Of a stretch of 64,000 nucleotides of DNA, positions 5,092 to 58,118 are shown in pieces. The DNA comes from Escherichia phage SDYTW1-F1-2-2_3, in sequence record OR296290.1; one strand, written 5' to 3'. How positions within the stretch are numbered: position 1 is the first letter of the stretch; the number at the start of each line of letters is the position of its first letter. The notes beneath the pieces are model-generated. The model did no database searches and had not been told where the DNA came from. It saw only the letters and a list, made by a program, of their open reading frames with translations. Position numbers and translations under genes: made by a program.

Positions 5092-6063
5092 TTAGTCATT
5101 GTAATACTCCACTAATTCAGAAAAGAGAGATGAGATTGTGTTACCAACTTCTTCAAGAGTAAGACCGGAATCTGCTCCAGTTCTTTGAATCAGTCGGGCT
5201 GTAAAGTTTTGTACTGTAATGTTTCCCAACTTGTCGTCTATTGCTTCACGTTTGTGACCATAACAGTTGGACCAGAGTCTTAACCACTCTGACATTGTTT
5301 CATACTCGTCCGGGTCTTGATCTTTAGCACGAGCAAATCTTCGTAAGGCATCTTGGTTATGGTTACGAACATAACCATTCTCGTTGTCGCCAACACCGAA
5401 GGGGTTTTGAACCCATACTTGCTTCGTGTATTCATCAGAGTCTACAACCAAAGGAAGGAATGCTGCTGCTGACATATTGTTATTAACAACAATAGAGGTG
5501 CTCTCGCTACTCCCATTGGCTCTTCCTCGTTGAGACCACCCACCGAAGAAGTCACGACCCAACCCAGCTAACACTAGAGCGATGCCGATGCGTTTACGCT
5601 TCAGCCACTCTTCCCTGTCTTCAATTCCTTCTGCTAGGAAATCCATTCCACGATACTGCCCTTCCAGAATACTACGGAAAAGCATAAGTCCTGTGAAGAT
5701 CTGATCTGCTGGATGCTCACGGAGGTTGACAGCAACACTATTCGCTGAAGTGATTGTAAATACGTCACGATAGCAAGACATAGAGTTCATAATGTCTGCT
5801 GTTTCAACCAAGTTCTTTTCAATATCAGATGCAACATGACCGTGAAAAGAGTGAGTCCAGTAATTCAACATCTCCAATTGCAAGTTGATATCACGGTTGA
5901 AGCGTCTATAATGCCTCTCTCCCATGATAACTTCACCATTAACATCAGTTACGCACTGGCCTTGCATGTAGTTGTGGATACCGAAGCATCCACGACCTAA
6001 GAACTTCTGTTCCCCTAAATCTTGTTGAAGACTCAGAGGTACGATCGTTGTGGAGATTGACAT
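5092..6063 (-). CDS. hypothetical protein in amidoligase cluster
   Basis: 323-aa ORF co-directional with cluster; family not recognised. Confidence 0.5.
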   Translation of the reverse strand: MSISTTIVPLSLQQDLGEQKFLGRGCFGIHNYMQGQCVTDVNGEVIMGERHYRRFNRDINLQLEMLNYWTHSFHGHVASDIEKNLVETADIMNSMSCYRDVFTITSANSVAVNLREHPADQIFTGLMLFRSILEGQYRGMDFLAEGIEDREEWLKRKRIGIALVLAGLGRDFFGGWSQRGRANGSSESTSIVVNNNMSAAAFLPLVVDSDEYTKQVWVQNPFGVGDNENGYVRNHNQDALRRFARAKDQDPDEYETMSEWLRLWSNCYGHKREAIDDKLGNITVQNFTARLIQRTGADSGLTLEEVGNTISSLFSELVEYYND

Positions 6064-7799: not shown

Positions 7800-7995
7800 A
7801 TTTCCTCTCGTTGAATTTAAAAAAGGACTCTCCGAAAAGAGCCAAGCTTTAAATCCAAAAAAGATATCACCCAATATCTGTGGATAACCTGCTCTTAAAA
7901 TATCTATCCGACGGATGTTTGAGGATTATTCCTCGCCCTAGCATCGGCCCCATACGGGAAATATATTAAGATTAGGTTAGTTGAGTTAGAATAAC

Positions 7996-8031
7996 TCACA
8001 TAGCCCTCCGAAGAAGGCTATAGGCGTTACT
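7996..8031 (-). promoter_or_regulatory. conserved stem-loop element at gene 3' end (copy 1)
   Basis: CTCACATAGCCC...GGCTATAGG...GTTACT overlapping the stop codon; second copy at 12331-12377. Confidence 0.4.
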
Positions 8032-8260
8032 CGCCTTTCTTAGCACGATCTTTGGCAGTTTTGCCAGTGCGGATACGATGGGAAACGTTAACCAGAGTGC
8101 CACCATCAACTACGGTAACGCTCTTGTTTTTAGCCAGATCAAACACAGTCTTCTCTGTGCCACCCAAGCGAATTTGCTTAGGCTCGCTGAAGGTTTGGGT
8201 TGATTTGGATTGGAACTGGAACGGTTGACGAATTGCATCGATTGCGCTTACTTTAGACAT
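8027..8260 (-). CDS. hypothetical protein
   Basis: Track ORF 8027-8338 trimmed to internal ATG at 8258-8260 (MSKVSAID...); longer form would run across a palindrome. Confidence 0.4.
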   Translation of the reverse strand: MSKVSAIDAIRQPFQFQSKSTQTFSEPKQIRLGGTEKTVFDLAKNKSVTVVDGGTLVNVSHRIRTGKTAKDRAKKGE

Positions 8261-8287
8261 AGGGAAATTCCTTAAAAAGTCATGGCT

Positions 8288-8309
8288 GCGTAGAGGGAAT
8301 TCCCTACGC
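8288..8309. promoter_or_regulatory. 22-bp near-perfect palindrome centred on GAATTC
   Basis: GCGTAGAGGGAATTCCCTACGC about 30 nt upstream of ATG 8260. Confidence 0.35.
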
Positions 8310-8331
8310 AAATTGGGCCGCCCACAGAGAG

Positions 8332-8349
8332 GCGTCATAGTACTAAAAG
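8332..8349 (-). promoter_or_regulatory. conserved 18-nt intergenic motif GCGTCATAGTACTAAAAG (copy 1)
   Basis: Identical 18-mer with palindromic core TAGTACTA, flanked by similar purine-rich sequence; just downstream of a minus-strand stop. Confidence 0.4.
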
Positions 8350-8365
8350 GAGGAGAGAAGAGGGA

Positions 8366-8482
8366 TTATTTAGCTACCTTTTTCTGTCCGTTTACGAACC
8401 AGATAATTGAACCGTCAGGCTGTCGTTGACCGAAGCCTTTCTGATTAATCATATCGTCATAAGAATACGCTTTACGTCTCAT
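8366..8482 (-). CDS. small basic protein (38 aa)
   Basis: ATG overlaps upstream TGA stop (ATGA) suggesting translational coupling; below track length cutoff. Confidence 0.3.
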   Translation of the reverse strand: MRRKAYSYDDMINQKGFGQRQPDGSIIWFVNGQKKVAK

Positions 8483-8739
8483 TTGTTTTCCTGTGGAGTT
8501 AAGATAATTTCAACCTTACTAAACTTCTCACCAACAACCATATCACCAGAGATGACACGTAGTTCTCCCGTGCCTAAATTAACAGCTCCAGCAGGTTGAC
8601 AACCTCTGCTCTTGGCTGTCATCATGTAAATCTTTTGATTCTGGCACTCTTGGAGTGTGAACACATCAGACATGTTTAGATCTTTAACACGAAGAACTGT
8701 CTTTTCTATGAAATCAACCTTGATACTGATAGTGCTCAT
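8479..8739 (-). CDS. small protein, GDVF-family paralog (putative)
   Basis: 86 aa; shares hydrophobic-x-x-(G/S)DVF ... C ... NLGTG pattern with neighbouring small proteins. Confidence 0.45.
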   Translation of the reverse strand: MSTISIKVDFIEKTVLRVKDLNMSDVFTLQECQNQKIYMMTAKSRGCQPAGAVNLGTGELRVISGDMVVGEKFSKVEIILTPQENK

Positions 8740-8744
8740 TGGTG

Positions 8745-8990
8745 TTATTCCTGAACCACTGACATACGAATCACTTCAACTGGGGCATCACTTTTCATAA
8801 CACCTAGTACACCAGTAAGAAGATTAACTGTAGTAATCCAACCTTCTTCGACAGAGATTTTGTTGGATACATTACTAACACGGATGTAGTACTGAGGAGT
8901 TGCTGTTCCTCGCTGAACTACGAAAGGGTTTCCGGGAATAATTGTAGCCAGTGAAACAGTGTTATCTTTAATCTTTGGGATGATCTTCAT
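8745..8990 (-). CDS. hypothetical small protein
   Basis: Track ORF trimmed to ATG at 8988-8990 immediately after upstream stop (8992-8994). Confidence 0.4.
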   Translation of the reverse strand: MKIIPKIKDNTVSLATIIPGNPFVVQRGTATPQYYIRVSNVSNKISVEEGWITTVNLLTGVLGVMKSDAPVEVIRMSVVQE

Positions 8991-8991
8991 A

Positions 8992-9222
8992 TTATTTACC
9001 CTGAATAATGAGTTTCGATTCGAACAGCTCAACAGTATTGGAATGAGGGACTGGAAAGAAAATATCTTTAGAATTCCGAACACCCATTGCAGAGTGGTCC
9101 CCTGTTTTTATCCAGAATTTAGGGACTACATCGTCACCAATAAAACGGAAAACATCTCCATTCTCCAAGTCAGAGAAAGTCTTGGAGGGTTCTTTACTTT
9201 TTGGTACTTGTTCAAAGTTCAT
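8992..9222 (-). CDS. small protein, GDVF-family paralog
   Basis: 76 aa; LENGDVFRF...KFWIKTGD motif. Confidence 0.5.
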   Translation of the reverse strand: MNFEQVPKSKEPSKTFSDLENGDVFRFIGDDVVPKFWIKTGDHSAMGVRNSKDIFFPVPHSNTVELFESKLIIQGK

Positions 9223-9230
9223 CTTGATTC

Positions 9231-9542
9231 CTATTTAAGTTTGAGGCTAATGTTAAGGTGCATACATGCCCTGTTCTGTACAGCAGCATAACTTCTACCG
9301 AGCATGTCAGCCATTCTCTGAATAGACATGAACCCAGCATTACGGATAAGGAACTGGTCTTCTTCTTTAGACCACTTGACTCGGATTACAGCTCTAGAAA
9401 TACCGAACTTAGTGCAAGCTGTATTAACTGCATTCTCCGTTACATTCATAATCTGAGCAACTTCTTGAACCGAGTACTCTTTGATTAGTCTCCGAAGATT
9501 TTCAATCTGCATCGGAGTCCATATAGTTCTTCGAGCTTTCAT
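9231..9542 (-). CDS. DNA-binding protein with two helix-turn-helix (Myb/SANT-like) repeats (putative)
   Basis: W..EEDQFL and VQEVAQIMNVTENAV segments; start set to ATG at 9540-9542 with GGTGG SD. Confidence 0.45.
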   Translation of the reverse strand: MKARRTIWTPMQIENLRRLIKEYSVQEVAQIMNVTENAVNTACTKFGISRAVIRVKWSKEEDQFLIRNAGFMSIQRMADMLGRSYAAVQNRACMHLNISLKLK

Positions 9543-9543
9543 T

Positions 9544-9765
9544 TTACCACCCATGTCGACTTTTAACTAACACACCATCAATTATCAGATAATGCGAATG
9601 CCTTATCATGTCTGAAGACAGATCTCCATGAGCGCTATTCCACTGAAGGAAGTTCATATCCTTCCAATCAGTGTAGTGCTTTTTGGCTTCTTCCTCTATC
9701 TGACTAAGAGTTACCCTTCTGAAAGGATACGGACTATGTTTGATAAGTGTTTCACATTTTGTCAT
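9544..9765 (-). CDS. hypothetical protein
   Basis: 73-aa track ORF. Confidence 0.4.
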   Translation of the reverse strand: MTKCETLIKHSPYPFRRVTLSQIEEEAKKHYTDWKDMNFLQWNSAHGDLSSDMIRHSHYLIIDGVLVKSRHGW

Positions 9766-10060
9766 ATACCCTCCGATTAAATGTTTATATAAGACTTGCT
9801 TAGATAAAGATTCAATAAAATAGGGGGAGGGGACGAATCCTCCCTTATCCTATTAATTACTATTGCATGTAAGATCTAACAATCGGTTGCCTTTTTAGGA
9901 GTAAGCGTTATGCTCATCCAGCACTAAACTCCCGCCCCCTTAGTGGGCTGGGTTATTAAAGGGTAACGCCCTTATGGGCTAGTTACGTGAATGTTAGTTT
10001 GATAGGAGATCTGAAGTCCTATCTCAAAGGACTCTCGTAAGAATCCTTCACGATAAGCTC

Positions 10061-10234
10061 TTAACACGATTGGTCACACGGCTGATCACCGCATGTTTTA
10101 CAGATCACTGGTGAGTAAATACAGGCAGGATATACTGACACACCGTCAAATGTCTCACACCCACAATCAGGGCATGTACCGTTGGATTCCATGTCATAAT
10201 CATCATCCACTTCACCACCACCAAAACAGCTCAT
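10061..10234 (-). CDS. Cys-rich mini-protein (57 aa, zinc-ribbon-like)
   Basis: MSCFGGGEVDDDYDMESNGTCPDCGCETFDGVSVYPACIYSPVICKTCGDQPCDQSC; abuts stop of upstream gene; below track cutoff. Confidence 0.4.
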   Translation of the reverse strand: MSCFGGGEVDDDYDMESNGTCPDCGCETFDGVSVYPACIYSPVICKTCGDQPCDQSC

Positions 10235-10243
10235 ATGAACTCC

Positions 10244-10465
10244 TCAGTAAACTAAACCTATAGCCTTTGCATCAGGCTGAGGGACTACTTTTGCACTAGG
10301 GCGATAGCCATCCACGGAGCCATTCCAAAGATTGACACAGGTGATATACCCATCGTTCAAGTAGTCTGTTTTAATCCAGAAGTGTTTATCATGACCAAAA
10401 ATACTTCCGTTTGGCAGTGTGGACAGTTCAACAGTTTTAAGGGATTGTTTAGAATCTAATTTCAT
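10244..10465 (-). CDS. small protein, GDVF-family paralog
   Basis: 73 aa; LPNGSIFGHDKHFWIKTD...CVNLWNGSV. Confidence 0.5.
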   Translation of the reverse strand: MKLDSKQSLKTVELSTLPNGSIFGHDKHFWIKTDYLNDGYITCVNLWNGSVDGYRPSAKVVPQPDAKAIGLVY

Positions 10466-10474
10466 ATAAGTTCC

Positions 10475-10672
10475 TTAACATACCAAACCGTGTAAAAGAA
10501 ACATCCTCTTTGTAAGCTCTGCTTTAGCTCTGTAATAAGCCTTAGAACCTAATAGGCGGCTCTTAACAAAGAACTTGATGTCATTGCTAACATCTTGTAT
10601 TAAACGCTCCTGTACAGCTTCTGAGGAGCTATTAATCGAATCAATTAACACCTTTGTAGACGTGTAATTCAT
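10475..10672 (-). CDS. hypothetical small protein
   Basis: Track ORF trimmed to ATG at 10670-10672 directly after upstream stop. Confidence 0.35.
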   Translation of the reverse strand: MNYTSTKVLIDSINSSSEAVQERLIQDVSNDIKFFVKSRLLGSKAYYRAKAELTKRMFLLHGLVC

Positions 10673-10673
10673 A

Positions 10674-10973
10674 TCACCATTCCTTACCGGTTGTAGTCGT
10701 AGAGCCACCACACCACAACGCTGTATCAATCACAACATTGTCTGGCGTAGACTTCTCTTCATTAATAGAAGGGTTAGCATTAGAGCAGGTTGCTCCGTTC
10801 CAGCGCATATCAATCTCACCAGAAGGAACCTTCTCACCTTTATGCCAGCGAGATACACAAATACCATCCACTGCTACTGCACACCATCCATCAGGACGGC
10901 TCTGTACGCAGCCTGTAAGGGCCACACAGACAAGGAAGATACAGATTAAGGATATTACACCACCCCAACTCAT
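10674..10973 (-). CDS. lipoprotein (putative)
   Basis: N-terminal MSWGGVISLICIFLVCVALTGC has signal-peptide h-region and LTGC lipobox; Cys-rich mature part. Confidence 0.5.
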   Translation of the reverse strand: MSWGGVISLICIFLVCVALTGCVQSRPDGWCAVAVDGICVSRWHKGEKVPSGEIDMRWNGATCSNANPSINEEKSTPDNVVIDTALWCGGSTTTTGKEW

Positions 10974-11077
10974 AACTGCCTCCTATTTGATTTGGCGCAC
11001 CGTGTAGGACTCCAACCTACAACCCATTTCTTAGAAGGAAATTGCTCTCTGCAATTGAGCTAACGGCGCAGAATTAT

Positions 11078-11242
11078 TTAGATCATATCTCGCTTGGTGA
11101 TATGACCACATGTCTTACATTGAAGTATATAACGGGTTCCAGTATCTTCTATTTTACCGAACTCATCATACACATTTAAACGAATCTCTTTGACTGTCTC
11201 CCACTCGTGAAGATGGAAGAGATATTTAAACCACTTGAACAT
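11078..11242 (-). CDS. small protein (54 aa) with CxxC..H motif
   Basis: MFKWFKYLFHLHEWETVKEIRLNVYDEFGKIEDTGTRYILQCKTCGHITKRDMI; SD AGAGGGA; packed against neighbours. Confidence 0.35.
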   Translation of the reverse strand: MFKWFKYLFHLHEWETVKEIRLNVYDEFGKIEDTGTRYILQCKTCGHITKRDMI

Positions 11243-11243
11243 A

Positions 11244-11417
11244 TCAATCCCTCTTTTTACGGAACTCTGTCAGATTGAAGATCTTAGCGTCACTTACAGA
11301 AACCCCTTGATTTCTATGGGCGCGGTCTCTGGCTCGTCGTATCTGTTGCTTGCTTAAGAAAAGAACGAGTGAGTATTCTTCTCCATCTTCGAAAAATTTA
11401 ACCTCTTTTCTTTTCAC
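11244..11417 (-). CDS. small basic protein (GTG start, putative)
   Basis: GTG at 11415-11417 preceded by GAGG SD 5 nt upstream; avoids overlap with 11425-11676. Confidence 0.3.
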   Translation of the reverse strand: MKRKEVKFFEDGEEYSLVLFLSKQQIRRARDRAHRNQGVSVSDAKIFNLTEFRKKRD

Positions 11418-11424
11418 ATTAACC

Positions 11425-11676
11425 TCAAGCACAAGCAGGGAGAGTGATGATTTTATATCGACCCTCAAACTCTCCAAATAAACCCAAGAATGTAGGACTG
11501 TAAGTACCAGTACAAACAAACTCATCAAACAGTGCGTTATAGCTAGGCTTAATCTTCCAAGCCCATACATAACCCATCTTGTCAATTGCAATGTAACGAG
11601 TGTTCAGAGGAACAGTCATCATTACACCGTCAACTTCGATCACTTTAGTGATTGGTGCAGCTTGAAAGTTTTTCAT
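11425..11676 (-). CDS. hypothetical protein
   Basis: 83-aa track ORF; ATG overlaps stop of upstream mini-gene (ATGA). Confidence 0.45.
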   Translation of the reverse strand: MKNFQAAPITKVIEVDGVMMTVPLNTRYIAIDKMGYVWAWKIKPSYNALFDEFVCTGTYSPTFLGLFGEFEGRYKIITLPACA

Positions 11677-11849
11677 ACTTTACCTTTAATAAAGATATCA
11701 TTACCACAGACACAGCATGAACGAACAACAGTAGCGCCACGCTGAACGATACGAACCTCTTCCTTAACCAGATTAACACGAGCACCACAGCAAGGAGAGT
11801 TAACATAAGAGTAACCAGCTTGTGTATTCTTGATTGTTTGCTTAGACAT
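11673..11849 (-). CDS. Cys-rich mini-protein (58 aa, zinc-ribbon-like)
   Basis: MSKQTIKNTQAGYSYVNSPCCGARVNLVKEEVRIVQRGATVVRSCCVCGNDIFIKGKV; AAGAGGAAG SD; verified codon by codon. Confidence 0.4.
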   Translation of the reverse strand: MSKQTIKNTQAGYSYVNSPCCGARVNLVKEEVRIVQRGATVVRSCCVCGNDIFIKGKV

Positions 11850-11890
11850 TTTAGCTTCCTCTTGTTAGTTTAAGTAAGAGTTGTCCCTTA

Positions 11891-11924
11891 ATTAAAACAA
11901 CAAAGGCCACCCGATTGGGCAGCC
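11891..11924 (-). terminator. rho-independent terminator (minus strand)
   Basis: On minus strand GGCUGCCC-AAUC-GGGUGGCC (two G-U pairs) then UUUGUUGUUUU. Confidence 0.5.
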
Positions 11925-11934
11925 TTTTTATCTA

Positions 11935-12075
11935 TTAACTATTATATGTCCAACTACCTTGCTTGTTACGAATAGCTGACATTGCATGAATCCAGAAGCC
12001 TTCCAGTTTCAGAGCACCGTTAGCTACTGCATCCATACGTTCAGGGCGGTTCATACGTTTGGTTGATACTTTCAT
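11935..12075 (-). CDS. small protein (46 aa)
   Basis: MKVSTKRMNRPERMDAVANGALKLEGFWIHAMSAIRNKQGSWTYNS; followed by a minus-strand terminator. Confidence 0.3.
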   Translation of the reverse strand: MKVSTKRMNRPERMDAVANGALKLEGFWIHAMSAIRNKQGSWTYNS

Positions 12076-12330
12076 ACCTATCTCTCTTTGTTAGTGGAGG
12101 CATTATTGCCAGTTAATATAAAGGGAAGCCCTACACGTTAAGGCTTCCGCTTGTACAAACTGTCGAGAACTCTCTACCCCTAGATTGTTCTCTATCCCAA
12201 ACCGATACGTACCCCTACATATCAGAAAGTCTTTCGAAAATTAACAGGTTTTAGTCTAACACCGGATGTTCGAGCAAGCTCTCCCTAGCGGTGTGGCATA
12301 TGCCTGATTAATAAGTTAATGAGGAACACC

Positions 12331-12377
12331 CTCACATAGCCCTCTGATAAACACAAGGGCTATAGGTCGGTGTTACT
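12331..12377 (-). promoter_or_regulatory. conserved stem-loop element at gene 3' end (copy 2)
   Basis: Same arms ATAGCCC/GGGCTAT with different loop; overlaps stop codon of 12373-12591. Confidence 0.4.
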
Positions 12378-12591
12378 TTTGAGATAAACACAGATCAGGA
12401 CGTGGCATAACAGTGGTTGATAGGCCGAAGACTTCAACAGAACCACTGTTCAAGTCAGCAGCTTTACACAAACCGTCAGGAGTTTTATCTTCTAGCATCA
12501 GCCAGAAACGTCTGTCGTAAGAGAAAACATCACCACCCTTAACATCTTCTGCATTTGCATATTTAGGATAATCAACTACTTTAATGTCCAT
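12373..12591 (-). CDS. small protein, GDVF-family paralog
   Basis: VKGGDVFSYDRRFWLMLED...C..DLNSGSV. Confidence 0.5.
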   Translation of the reverse strand: MDIKVVDYPKYANAEDVKGGDVFSYDRRFWLMLEDKTPDGLCKAADLNSGSVEVFGLSTTVMPRPDLCLSQK

Positions 12592-12601
12592 CTAATTGCC
12601 C

Positions 12602-17396: not shown

Positions 17397-18155
17397 TTAA
17401 AGAGCGGTAAATCTGTCAGTGTGCTTTCTCACACTACGCAACTGTAAGCCGTTGTTTCGCTTTTCACTGAAGCGGTGATTTGCCTAGTGAGTACGCTCAT
17501 TATGGACCATGATGTTTTCGCTGTCAACCGCTTTTTTAATCTTTTTCGTCGTTCCCGCTATTGGGAGGATATATCAACCAGCTTTATTTGATTGAAGATT
17601 AAGCGGTGAGGCTTAACTCATGATTCACATTGTTAAAGAGCGTTTAGCCTTTTATAGTGTCTGCTAATCACTGCATCATTAAAGGCTTACTTATTCATTA
17701 ACGGGGCGCCTAAGCCCGAACTAATCGCCGCACTGTGTGCCACCTTTCCCGCGATACGTTGATTTGGGAACTAGTTAACGTTGTTTTGTTAACTTGTGGT
17801 TAGTATGAACTACCTTAACCACGTTTGCAACCTCTTTTTTATCATCTTCTTTTATTCTTTTCCCTTATCTCGCGTGAGTCTATGCGAAAGGGCAAGATGA
17901 TAAGTTTTTAAAGAGCGGGATGCTTTAAGTCATCGCTGACTATGCTCACTATATATCAGGCTATTTTCGGTGTCAATACTCTTTTTAAGAATATTTTCAC
18001 TTTCTAGCCTGATTTTTAAAGAGCGGGGCAATTTCTTGCCTTGTATGTTTTTCATCGTACCCGATGAATTGAAGTATACGCCAACCAGTGAGTAATGCAA
18101 TAGGGTAGGGCAAATTATTTTAAACTTTTTCACTATAGGAAGATAAAAGAGCGGG
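17397..18155 (+). repeat. five dispersed direct repeats of TTAAAGAGCGG(G) in a non-coding region
   Basis: Copies at about 17397, 17633, 17905, 18013 and 18144; inverted copy CCCGCTCTC at about 16608. Confidence 0.6.
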
Positions 18156-57810: not shown

Positions 57811-57954
57811 TTATGACCAAGATTTAGCTTTTACTTCAACATATGTTTTAACTTCACCTTTCAAGACTTCCTGAGAAGCAATTACACTTTCCTCAGAGTG
57901 GTGTACAACGGTGATCTCTTTCTTTCCAATTCTGTAAGTGTGAATCCAAATCAT
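57811..57954 (-). CDS. small protein (47 aa)
   Basis: ATG overlaps upstream TGA (ATGA); open frame verified. Confidence 0.3.
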   Translation of the reverse strand: MIWIHTYRIGKKEITVVHHSEESVIASQEVLKGEVKTYVEVKAKSWS

Positions 57955-58118
57955 ACTTCTTCCTTATATTCCCAATTTCTTTCATAATATCCAGAGTTGT
58001 AGTTTAGGGCGCATTTCTCAGCCTCTTCTACGTCATCAGTGTTTAGGATATTAACCCATCCACCAACTTCATCAAAACCCTCTTCCTCTTCGTTAAACCA
58101 TACGCTATATTTTTTCAT
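57951..58118 (-). CDS. small acidic protein (55 aa)
   Basis: ATG overlaps stop of 58115-58513 (ATGA); open frame verified. Confidence 0.3.
   Translation of the reverse strand: MKKYSVWFNEEEEGFDEVGGWVNILNTDDVEEAEKCALNYNSGYYERNWEYKEEV

Follow-up and report, generated by a model that had tools for sequence, protein, structure and literature searches.

The five very short open reading frames m1 to m5, together with a sixth at 11244-11417, are as a whole best explained as genuine small accessory early genes of a phiEco32-like phage, and we consider this reading very likely. The five are not new, having been annotated as hypothetical proteins in relatives since 2008, and the finding of the mini-ORFs is therefore an ordinary one. 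The first-pass annotation of the window, i.e., the whole 64,000-nt stretch of DNA that was analysed, had described real, densely packed genes with Shine-Dalgarno (SD) sites and ATGA junctions, and in this it was right. It had also held that standard callers would miss them, which was mistaken: each of the five has a CDS annotation in phiEco32, MN03 and SU10 (Glimmer), in RefSeq records and in the Prokka-style SR02 record, and Glimmer, PGAP and Prokka-style pipelines each call them.

Genomic context and prior annotation

The source genome is a phiEco32-like podovirus (Kuravirus) with ~91% identity to MN03 and phiEco32. The five mini-ORFs are present at exactly the coordinates given for them in the first-pass annotation, all on the minus strand, inside the leftward early region, where genes are separated by gaps of 1-9 nt or share 4-nt ATGA overlaps. 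The features discussed below are as follows.

8366-8482, minus strand: m1, 38-aa basic protein (pI 10.1), phi32_94 orthologue, phrog_14557 (full-length match, E=1.7e-30)
8479-8739, minus strand: 86-aa gene (ORF call) whose TGA overlaps the m1 ATG (ATGA at 8479-8482)
9820-10055, minus strand: structured non-coding element, candidate ncRNA, in the 295-nt gap 9766-10060, ending in a terminator-like hairpin (9844-9825)
10061-10234, minus strand: m2, 57-aa acidic Cys-rich protein (pI 4.1), phi32_103 orthologue, phrog_13157 (PHROG match and conservation)
10993-11069, minus strand: tRNA-Arg(UCU) within the gene chain (ARAGORN), annotated in relatives too
11078-11242, minus strand: m3, 54-aa protein, orthologue of phi32_107 and SU10 gp105, phrog_8294 (PHROG match and conservation)
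11244-11417, minus strand: x, probable sixth mini-gene (57 aa, GTG start; SD GAGG, -6.3 kcal/mol), not in the first-pass list
11425-11676, minus strand: 83-aa gene, start codon overlapping the stop of m4 (ATGA, 11673-11676)
11673-11849, minus strand: m4, 58-aa basic protein (pI 9.4), phi32_110 orthologue, phrog_18461 (PHROG match and conservation)
11902-11927, minus strand: terminator-like hairpin between m5 and m4, an 11-bp stem followed by a T-rich tail
11935-12075, minus strand: m5, 46-aa basic protein (pI 10.5), phi32_112 orthologue, phrog_13305 (full-length match, E=1.9e-35)
12076-12372, minus strand: gap B, conserved non-coding leader of 297 nt upstream of m5, with a terminator-like hairpin (12148-12124)
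17498-17976, minus strand: two sigma-70 early promoters, differing at 1 and 3 positions from promoters listed in SU10 Table S2
57811-58118, minus strand: mini-genes of the right block, 47 aa (57811-57954) and 55 aa (57951-58118) long, orthologues of phi32_44 and phi32_45

The sigma-70 promoters are situated 5-6 kb upstream of the mini-ORF block and share its orientation. In phiEco32 the orthologues of m1 to m5 are the hypothetical proteins gp94, gp103, gp107, gp110 and gp112 (YP_001671839, _848, _852, _855 and _857), and across phiEco32, SU10, MN03 and others amino acid identity is 59-100% with equal gene lengths, except for m3 (165 nt here, 180 nt as annotated in phiEco32). Every one of the five matches its PHROG end to end in both protein and profile (E 2e-24 to 1e-44). 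Their order around the tRNA-Arg gene, their strand and their early-region placement are those of the phiEco32, SU10 and MN03 orthologues, and in Gordonclarkvirinae genomes they keep their places with respect to the genes for the D5-like regulator, lipoprotein, tRNA-Arg and helicase. The SU10 paper likewise counts 125 CDSs with a minimum of 38 aa, with "many short CDSs" bearing ribosome-binding sites in the early region.

Relative to phiEco32, the window is without phi32_101, 102, 109, 111 and phi32_46 and contains the extra gene x; apart from these and the long form of the gene upstream of m1, which is shared with SU10, differences from the phiEco32-type orthologues are allelic only. The DNA of x is absent from every Kuravirus record, in which the flanks alone match, and from the 14 related loci, making it an insert specific to this phage. 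Over its full length, its product is ~30% identical to small proteins annotated in Klebsiella phage PW7 and Enterobacter phage SABI.

The early regions of T4 and T7 are dense arrays of tiny genes with ATGA/TAATG translational coupling. The locus studied here resembles them in its many genes of less than 100 aa with no assigned function, tightly packed or overlapping and variable among relatives, in the host-type promoters that drive expression early in infection, and in its ATGA overlaps. It has the normal architecture of a lytic-phage early region, with nothing specific to the locus.

Conservation and selection

Conservation is the real test of coding here, because ORFs this short could occur by chance. 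Of 14 related loci (Kuravirus, Suseptimavirus and PKM.Lu.22.1), 10-13 carry each mini-ORF intact, all orthologues found are intact, and for all five the orthologues differ in length by multiples of 3 only. Across the orthologues pN/pS is 0.08-0.45 in frame but about 0.9-6 when the frame is shifted, and in all five the third codon positions carry more than their share of the variable sites (p 0.03 to 1e-11). The check proposed in the earlier annotation, conservation and dN/dS in related phages, thus came out in favour of the mini-ORFs. The strongest constraint of any early gene here is seen in m2 (pN/pS 0.08; third-position excess p=1e-11), and m4 gives the same pN/pS (0.08; p=6e-5). For m3, which is intact in 13/14 loci, pN/pS is 0.40 in a set that mixes orthologues with paralogues.

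The suggested SD sites were also borne out, with pairing energies for the five of -4.3 to -8.7 kcal/mol against a mean of -2.5 kcal/mol over all 1080 minus-strand ATGs, just 17% of which reach -4.5. The site of m2 is strong (GAGGAG, -8.7 kcal/mol); m3 has GAGGG (-6.3 kcal/mol) and m1 AGGA (-4.3 kcal/mol).

One alternative is that the mini-ORFs arose by chance in the spacers that separate true genes and encode nothing. Open frames of 38-58 codons are not improbable at roughly 42% G+C, and mass spectrometry of a virion-enriched SU10 lysate detected none of the five orthologues; a search of the literature found no Ribo-seq for this phage group. However, pN/pS falls below 0.5 just in the annotated frame and the codon-aligned antisense frame, and the uninterrupted orthologues keep 43-68% amino acid identity across genera with conservative replacements. 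Together with the third-position excess, the SD sites and the end-to-end PHROG matches of all five, this effectively refutes the chance reading on sequence grounds, and we consider it extremely improbable. A subtler alternative is that some mini-ORFs, chiefly m1 and m5, are translated mainly for regulation (coupling, mRNA stabilisation or as a leader peptide), so that translation would matter more than the peptide. These two have the highest pN/pS of the five (0.41 for m1, 0.45 for m5) and thus the weakest constraint, m1 is ATGA-coupled in this phage, and m5 follows immediately on the very conserved 297-nt leader, with a terminator-like hairpin on either side. Yet in both, long peptide blocks stay invariant from genus to genus (KGFGQRQPDGS for m1, TKRMNRPERM-AVANGALK for m5), gene length is strictly fixed at 117 and 141 nt, their third-position excess is significant (p=0.014 and 0.021), and the adjacent 65-103-aa genes have comparable pN/pS (0.11-0.56). 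A mainly regulatory role is therefore quite unlikely in our judgement, and we continue with the reading that all five are small protein-coding genes. Both m1 and m5 are intact in 13/14 loci, with 66-68% amino acid identity to Suseptimavirus for m1 and 59-64% in other genera for m5, in which the N-terminus, TKRMNRPERMDAVANGALK, is conserved.

Gene junctions and translational coupling

Stop/start overlaps (ATGA) of the kind that marks coupled pairs occur at four junctions. Both overlaps reported in the mini-ORF block, at 8479-8482 and 11673-11676, are real, but only at the first is a mini-ORF the downstream partner, namely m1; at the second it is the upstream gene that is a mini-ORF, m4, and its stop overlaps the ATG of the 83-aa gene at 11425-11676. 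The other two, at 57951-57954 and 58115-58118, agree with the couplings noted earlier for the right block (57811-58118), which sits in the middle-gene region, and the WFI101126 annotation has identical 4-nt overlaps.

Upstream of m1, the 261-nt form of the gene that creates the overlap is found in the window and SU10 only. The other relatives mostly have shorter forms ending a few nucleotides before m1 and leaving 8 nt or a little more in between, as in MN03, phiEco32, EcoN5 and SR02 (249-nt gene, 8-nt spacer). The m1 ATGA is thus present in just 2/14 genomes compared (the window and 13 relatives), and therefore coupling at m1 is not a conserved requirement. By comparison, all m4 orthologues end in TGA, and in 10/10 loci with m4 its stop is joined to the next annotated gene, whichever gene that is, by a 4-nt overlap or a 1-nt spacer. 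By analogy with known bacterial and phage operons, the mini-genes would be translated from polycistronic early mRNA, and at the two ATGA junctions of the mini-ORF block the terminating ribosome may re-initiate on the next gene.

Cysteine-rich mini-proteins and metal binding

The first-pass annotation had called the Cys-rich mini-proteins zinc-ribbon-like, and Cys/His patterns of this type are indeed conserved in three of them. In m2 the motifs CPDC...CKTC are invariant and accompanied by four more conserved Cys; its reported "four Cys pairs" are roughly correct, there being nine Cys in m2 of which eight are conserved family-wide. In m3 the pattern is HxH...CKxC (H10-x-H12 ... C42-x2-C45 invariant), and in m4 it is CC...C-x2-C, where the first "knuckle" consists of two adjacent Cys and is atypical of a zinc ribbon. 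Of the "CC...CCVC" described for m4, all the residues are present (C20, C21, C45, C46 and C48), but C46 is Tyr in many relatives, leaving C20, C21 ... C45-x2-C48 as the conserved set. The m4 family is small, comprising just 8 clusters, all at least 86% identical.

Searches of Pfam, NCBIfam, PADLOC and the PDB gave no significant family match for the mini-proteins. The best PDB profile matches to zinc ribbons were weak and below significance (E=0.004-0.085), the m2 profile against ribosomal L37Ae giving E=0.004 and m4 against RPA12 E=0.085. AlphaFold models were of low confidence for m2 (pLDDT 47) and m4 (pLDDT 52); the topology of the latter is compatible with a three-stranded zinc ribbon, and its best Foldseek match, not significant, was the NrdR zinc ribbon (E about 0.75, TM 0.45). 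Judged by their sequence motifs, m2 (eight conserved Cys, CPxCG knuckle), m3 (HxH...CxxC) and m4 (CC...CxxC) may fold around structural metal ions, most likely zinc, and the zinc-ribbon idea for the Cys-rich mini-proteins is plausible. Classical zinc ribbons (L37Ae, the C-terminal ribbon of TFIIS/RPA12 and the N-terminal ribbon of NrdR) appear to share with them the CPxCG/CxxC knuckles and a spacer of beta-hairpin length, whereas m2 has C-x6-C as its second half-site plus an extra C-x4-C-x3-C, m4 opens with CC and m3 uses HxH.

The Cys-rich proteins, m2 especially, could instead hold an Fe-S cluster or another metal, or be disulfide-rich. The eight conserved Cys of m2 (seven invariant, one in at least 90%) exceed a single Zn(Cys)4 site, its C-terminal C-x2-C-x4-C-x3-C cluster could bind another cofactor, zero zinc-ribbon families reached significance and AlphaFold gave no confident fold. 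Eight Cys would nevertheless be the right number for a pair of Zn(Cys)4 sites, CPxCG knuckles are characteristic of zinc ribbons and the recurrent weak matches are all to zinc ribbons (L37Ae, Lar, YjdM and LysW). Structural disulfides are also unlikely because the E. coli cytoplasm is reducing. We regard a non-zinc solution as unlikely, and return to putative zinc-binding mini-proteins as the preferred reading.

The best-studied case of tiny phage zinc-finger proteins is the TraR/lambda Orf73/DksA type, C4 zinc-finger proteins that bind RNA polymerase (PMC9239242). Like the mini-proteins, these stand alone, are of the Cys4 type, measure about 55-75 aa and are encoded in operons of phages or plasmids, but there is no homology, and the mini-proteins are without the N-terminal coiled coil and differ in Cys spacing. 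The DksA/TraR family (PF01258), marked by a CxxC-x17-CxxC finger that follows a helical region, gave no match to m2, m3 or m4 at E<=1, and matched 1/77 members of the m2 family at E=0.005, i.e., at chance level. The haloarchaeal CPxCG zinc-finger micro-proteins (e.g., Brz; PDB 8q5b), with regulatory roles (PMC2253796), are also stand-alone, about 55-60 aa long and built on CPxCG motifs, but belong to another domain of life with no detectable homology (E=1.2).

Members of the m2 family are stand-alone mini-proteins of ~55 aa with the Cys spacing C-x~17-CPxCG-x~13-C-xYSPxxC-xTCG-xxPCDxSC. Among 77 members, none of which led to a matching Pfam family, C3, C21, C24, C38, C45, C53 and C57 are invariant and C48 is kept in at least 90%. 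The family is large, clustering at 50% identity giving at least 206 clusters. It extends over Kuravirus, T4-like phages and several further groups of enterobacterial phages, with relatives located in early or accessory parts of the genomes of unrelated phages; we found no published description of it. Going by their patterns, m2, m3 and m4 may, like other tiny phage early proteins, bind or inhibit host or phage macromolecules stoichiometrically in takeover or counter-defence, and m2 could be an effector with two metal sites directed against a highly conserved host target. In m3, tandem paralogues in five relatives combine an invariant framework with a hypervariable middle, an arrangement that would suit a diversifying binding surface.

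Non-coding elements

The gap 9766-10060 is a candidate for encoding a structured RNA of ~240 nt ending in a terminator. The element at 9820-10055 has stops in all six frames, a fold z of -4.2 and no Rfam match, and its 33 distinct copies are confined to Gordonclarkvirinae and the N4-like Gamaleyavirus. Its 26 pairs are 98.7% paired, and 6 of them show compensatory changes, compared with 0-3 in shifted controls. The element is thus shared by E. coli podoviruses of two lineages that are unrelated, and Gordonclarkvirinae and Gamaleyavirus may have exchanged its modules. We found no published description of this element either, and that at least one of the m2 family and the 9766-10060 RNA is a functional element so far undescribed is a reasonable possibility, at slightly less than an even chance.

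Gap B is found in 98/98 matching records, mostly without annotation, with a fold z of -2.8; its nucleotide identity to Suseptimavirus is 91%, compared with 61-64% at the amino acid level for the adjacent m5. The terminator-like hairpins at 12148-12124, 11927-11902 and 9844-9825 all lie inside the presumed operon, and read-through or internal promoters are therefore assumed.

The mini-genes and their setting in the early region

A megablast search with 8000-12600 of the window matched 108 phage records, almost all of them from Escherichia phages in the phiEco32 group (Kuravirus, Gordonclarkvirinae), and the top matches showed ~91% identity across 91% of the query. From 6 to 13.6 kb every gene is carried by the minus strand. 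Tight packing of small early genes is the norm in lytic phages. The following features are referred to throughout, in leftward order.

Features of the early region (m1-m5, mini-ORFs; x, an additional mini-ORF; gaps A-C, conserved non-coding spacers)
17976-17948, minus strand, counterpart of a sigma-70 early promoter listed for phage SU10, 5-6 kb upstream of the mini-gene block
17527-17498, minus strand, second counterpart of a SU10-listed sigma-70 early promoter, 5-6 kb upstream of the block
12076-12372, minus strand, gap B, upstream of m5, ending in a terminator-like hairpin (12148-12124)
11935-12075, minus strand, m5, 46 aa
11673-11849, minus strand, m4, 58 aa
11425-11676, minus strand, 83-aa gene
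11244-11417, minus strand, x, 57 aa, GTG start, Shine-Dalgarno (SD) GAGG 5 nt upstream, between m3 and the 83-aa gene
11078-11242, minus strand, m3, 54 aa
10993-11069, tRNA-Arg(UCU)
10061-10234, minus strand, m2, 57 aa
9820-10055 (compared as 9818-10055), minus strand, gap A, ~240 nt, conserved, structured and non-coding, ending in a terminator-like hairpin
8366-8482, minus strand, m1, 38 aa
7875-8026, gap C

The leftward, right-hand part of these genomes is the early expression class, transcribed by the host sigma-70 RNA polymerase, and its mostly hypothetical genes are supposed to act in host takeover (PMC8948821; PMC4281155; PMC9965538). A third SU10 early promoter, upstream of CDS125, had no match in the window at ≤ 3 mismatches.

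The first-pass annotation had described m1-m5 as a chain of very short genes joined by ATGA start/stop overlaps and preceded by plausible SD sites. All five are present with exact coordinates on the minus strand, which reads ATGA at both junctions named (8479-8482 and 11673-11676); at the latter, m4 lies upstream and supplies the stop, and the downstream 83-aa gene starts with the ATG. The remaining spacers in the block measure 1-9 nt, save three longer ones of 85, 105 and ~295 nt. In all 10 related loci that carry m4, its TGA and the start of the next gene have either a 4-nt overlap or a 1-nt spacer, whichever gene follows. The m1 overlap is found only in the window phage and SU10, because in both of them the upstream gene is 261 nt long. 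In MN03, phiEco32, EcoN5 and SR02 that gene measures 249 nt and is separated from m1 by 8 nt, and in the remaining relatives it takes other short forms. Anti-SD pairing energies (m1 -4.3, m2 -8.7, m3 -6.3, m4 -6.0 and m5 -4.9 kcal/mol) lie well beyond the mean of -2.5 kcal/mol for all 1080 minus-strand ATGs, only 17% of which reach -4.5.

Coding evidence and annotation status

An open frame of 40-60 codons is unremarkable by itself, and conservation was therefore tested, a check that the first-pass annotation had itself proposed together with dN/dS. Fourteen related loci were fetched, and the comparison took in eleven Kuravirus-type loci (one an unclassified record), three Suseptimavirus-type loci (EK010, ECBP2 and 101114BS3, the last filed as Kuravirus) and the more distant PKM.Lu.22.1. 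By tblastn each mini-protein was recovered at full length in 10-13 of the 14 loci, with identity falling to 43-68% in other genera. Every orthologue of m1-m5 retains a start codon, none has an internal stop, and lengths differ by whole codons only. Pooled pairwise pN/pS (Nei-Gojobori) was low in frame (m1 0.41, m2 0.08, m3 0.40, m4 0.08, m5 0.45) compared with ~0.9-6 in the two shifted frames, adjacent genes of 65-103 aa giving 0.11-0.56, and variable columns were in excess at third codon positions (m1 p = 0.014, m2 1e-11, m3 0.028, m4 6e-5, m5 0.021). Judged by these patterns of conservation and substitution, m1-m5 are real protein-coding genes. None of the five was detected in proteomics of a virion-enriched SU10 lysate, a negative that is uninformative for small early proteins.

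The further claim, that such genes would be missed by standard callers, is refuted, since they have been annotated by Glimmer (SU10), NCBI RefSeq annotation and Prokka-style pipelines. The 2008 phiEco32 record already holds CDSs of 117, 174, 180, 177 and 141 nt in syntenic places (phi32_94, 103, 107, 110 and 112), and the same genes are annotated in MN03, EcoN5, ES17, SU10, MN05, SR02, WFI101126 and 172-1, except that the stretch fetched from 172-1 has no 165-nt m3-type gene and no 141-nt gene. Genes of 117, 165 and 141 nt are annotated in Suseptimavirus records, and the SU10 paper reported 125 CDSs of ≥ 38 aa (PMC4281155). Each of the five proteins aligns with a PHROG family over the full length (E 2e-24 to 1e-44), and every one of these families is labelled 'unknown function'. 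The couplings proposed for a right block of mini-genes (57811-58118, minus strand) are likewise there, with ATGA at 57951-57954 and 58115-58118, and correspond to phi32_44 and phi32_45, annotated with identical 4-nt overlaps; the window does not contain phi32_46. The first-pass annotation was thus wrong on novelty, because the mini-genes had already been called and catalogued. Its observation is confirmed, its interpretation is partly right (real genes with conserved metal-ligand patterns) and the finding is ordinary: as stated it adds little, m1-m5 having been in GenBank and PHROGs for years.

Cysteine and histidine patterns of m2, m3 and m4

Zinc-ribbon-like mini-proteins had also been proposed, and here the metal-ligand patterns proved real and conserved, while membership of a zinc-ribbon family did not follow from sub-threshold profiles and poor models. 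Close relatives of m2 retain all nine Cys. A profile search of 1.84 billion representative proteins returned 206 clusters at E ≤ 0.001; almost without exception these are free-standing proteins of 50-80 aa aligned from end to end. Across an alignment of 77 members C3, C21, C24, C38, C45, C53 and C57 are invariant, C48 is ≥ 90% conserved and C26 is not conserved, giving the consensus M-x-C...G-x-CPxCG...DG...C-x-YSPxxC-x-TCG-xx-PCD-x-SC. The m2 family, at ~55 aa with eight conserved Cys, comprises at least 206 clusters at 50% identity and is without a Pfam entry. Members are carried by a T4-like contig, where the gene lies beside rnlA, pseT, cd and gene 30, by a 340-kb contig, and by Proteus, Cronobacter, Pantoea and Erwinia phages, every one being labelled hypothetical.

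In m3, H10, H12, C42 and C45 are invariant and residues ~15-35 are hypervariable. Five relatives each carry two tandem paralogues, only ~40-48% identical to m3.

Tandem m3 paralogue pairs in related loci (coordinates within each locus)
5699-6034, L003 (EcoN5)
5102-5437, L006
4546-4884, L007
5355-5675, L008
4804-5139, L013

With its invariant HxH...CKxCG framework, the m3 family looks like a fixed scaffold bearing a diversifying surface. The m4 family is narrow (8 clusters, all ≥ 86% identical, only in close Kuravirus relatives); no variation is seen at C20, C21, C45 or C48, and many relatives have Tyr in place of C46.

Scans of all six mini-proteins (m1-m5 and x) against Pfam, NCBIfam and PADLOC gave nothing above threshold, and PDB sequence searches with m1-m5 returned only sub-threshold zinc-ribbon or antibody noise (m2 profile to L37Ae E = 0.004, m2 to LysW E = 2.6, m4 to the RPA12 ribbon E = 0.085, m3 to the TnpB zinc finger E = 0.74). 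AlphaFold2 models built from shallow alignments were too poor to use (pLDDT 52 for m4, 47 for m2). In the m4 model the order of elements is knuckle, hairpin, knuckle, strand; the model's best Foldseek matches, the NrdR N-terminal zinc ribbon and ELOF1, were not significant (E ~0.75, TM ~0.45). As a description of pattern, 'zinc-ribbon-like' is a reasonable label for m2, m3 and m4.

A probable sixth mini-gene

The mini-ORF x was missing from the first-pass list; its stop lies 1 nt ahead of the m3 ATG. Its DNA was found in no Kuravirus record, where the flanks alone match, and in none of the 14 loci. Annotated small proteins of Enterobacter phages and of PW7, an N4-like Klebsiella phage, align with the whole length of its product at ~30% identity and share with it the motif RKE[LV]KF..EG..Y. 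We consider x probably a real accessory gene that was horizontally acquired.

Conserved spacers between the genes

Gaps A, B and C are better conserved than the surrounding genes. Gap A is 87.5% identical to its counterpart in PKM.Lu.22.1, its flanking genes being 41-57% identical, and 72-78% identical to copies in N4-like Gamaleyavirus phages (PhAPEC5, K57alpha1.2 and others); the PhAPEC5 copy is a largely non-coding stretch near tRNA-Ile. Scans of viral and metagenome collections with its invariant core, GTTAGRTCTTACATGCAA, yielded 33 distinct full-length copies, every one from Gordonclarkvirinae or Gamaleyavirus. None was matched in 5,426 E. coli genomes.

Two other readings of these spacers were rejected. 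Gap A has stops in every one of its six frames, indels of 1 nt and swapped hairpins, which contradict a missed coding sequence. Sigma-70 promoter regions are supported by neither the consensus scan of the transcribed strand, which was empty across the gaps, nor SU10 Table S2, which has no entries there. Gap A is instead a candidate phage ncRNA or cis-regulatory RNA, to judge from its conservation and predicted folding. It folds better than shuffled sequence (z = -4.2) and its 3' end forms a conserved hairpin, GGGAGG...CCUCCC, followed by a tail rich in U. Of the 26 pairs in the RNAalifold consensus, which are 98.7% paired, six have compensatory changes, where shifted-partner controls give 0-3; the covariation support is modest, because few independent events underlie it. 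Internal hairpins inside an invariant CUAAC/GUUAG helix occur in alternative sequence forms, both in both phage groups. Rfam searches (gathering mode for the whole window, E-value mode for two gaps) gave chance-level matches only, the SU10 promoter/terminator table has no entry at gap A, and a literature search for a phiEco32 or G7C ncRNA found nothing relevant. A gap in such a region is thus not always a missed ORF: conserved non-coding elements lie among the genes, and at least one looks like an RNA gene common to more than one phage family.

One metagenome contig (OERT01002574.1) carries a mosaic gap A whose 5' half is of Gamaleyavirus type and whose 3' end is of Kuravirus/Suseptimavirus type, a combination that suggests recombination between the two lineages inside the element.

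Gap B (12081-12372) is 91% identical to Suseptimavirus-type loci, the adjoining m5 being 61-64% at protein level; all 98 matching phage records contain it, it is almost never annotated, and it folds with z = -2.8. Most Kuravirus genomes have a ~60-nt insertion in it that the window phage and Suseptimavirus do not have. Between genera, gap C (7875-8011) is ~90% identical. A hairpin of the form cacatagccct...agggctat(a)gg recurs at the downstream end of gap C (7995-8030) and the upstream end of gap B (12331-12365) and may be a processing or termination signal. We also looked for mobile cassettes like the PeSLs of T4; only a 14-nt hairpin fragment was strictly common to the gaps.

Proposed mode of action and significance

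The mini-genes are conserved, selected and SD-preceded, and are packed in the leftward early region downstream of sigma-70 promoters. By established operon biology they would be translated off a polycistronic early mRNA, and ribosomes would terminate and reinitiate at the ATGA junctions. Ligand pattern and context are consistent with m2, m3 and m4 being metal-stabilised mini-domains, which may bind host or phage macromolecules stoichiometrically. Among analogues, the TraR/lambda Orf73 class of small zinc-finger proteins, which reprogramme RNA polymerase (PMC9239242), has been studied best, but m2, m3 and m4 are not members of that family. Each of m1, m5 and x encodes a small basic product (pI 10.1-10.5) for which relatives of known function were not detected. 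Terminator-like hairpins flank m5 on both sides (12148-12124 and 11927-11902), so that this gene may be a small, separate unit of transcription or attenuation within the early operon.

The mini-proteins are small, strongly constrained and metal-binding in appearance, and count among the 'all hypothetical' early gene products of a phage group that is now being employed in studies of therapy and biocontrol. Nothing relevant came from a literature search for screens of Kuravirus early-gene function. Given the breadth of the m2 family and the hypervariable scaffold of m3, these two are candidate effectors of host takeover or counter-defence that are tractable to study. Only the m2 family, x and the gap A RNA might merit further work by a specialist.

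Mosaicism in related records

Compared with phiEco32, 8027-12591 of the window is mosaic in gene content: phi32_92, 101, 102, 109 and 111 are absent and x is present, and the junctions frequently coincide with gene boundaries marked by 1-nt spacers or ATGA overlaps. The EcoN5 locus has an apparent tandem duplication of ~1.5 kb (31-1234 and 1549-2752) that takes in genes of 363, 153, 216 and 234 nt and gap C. Record PP350014.1 (phage PH444; 114.9 kb, no annotation, flagged UNVERIFIED_ORG) holds Kuravirus sequence in two places; it exceeds every Kuravirus genome by far and may be a chimeric or concatenated assembly.
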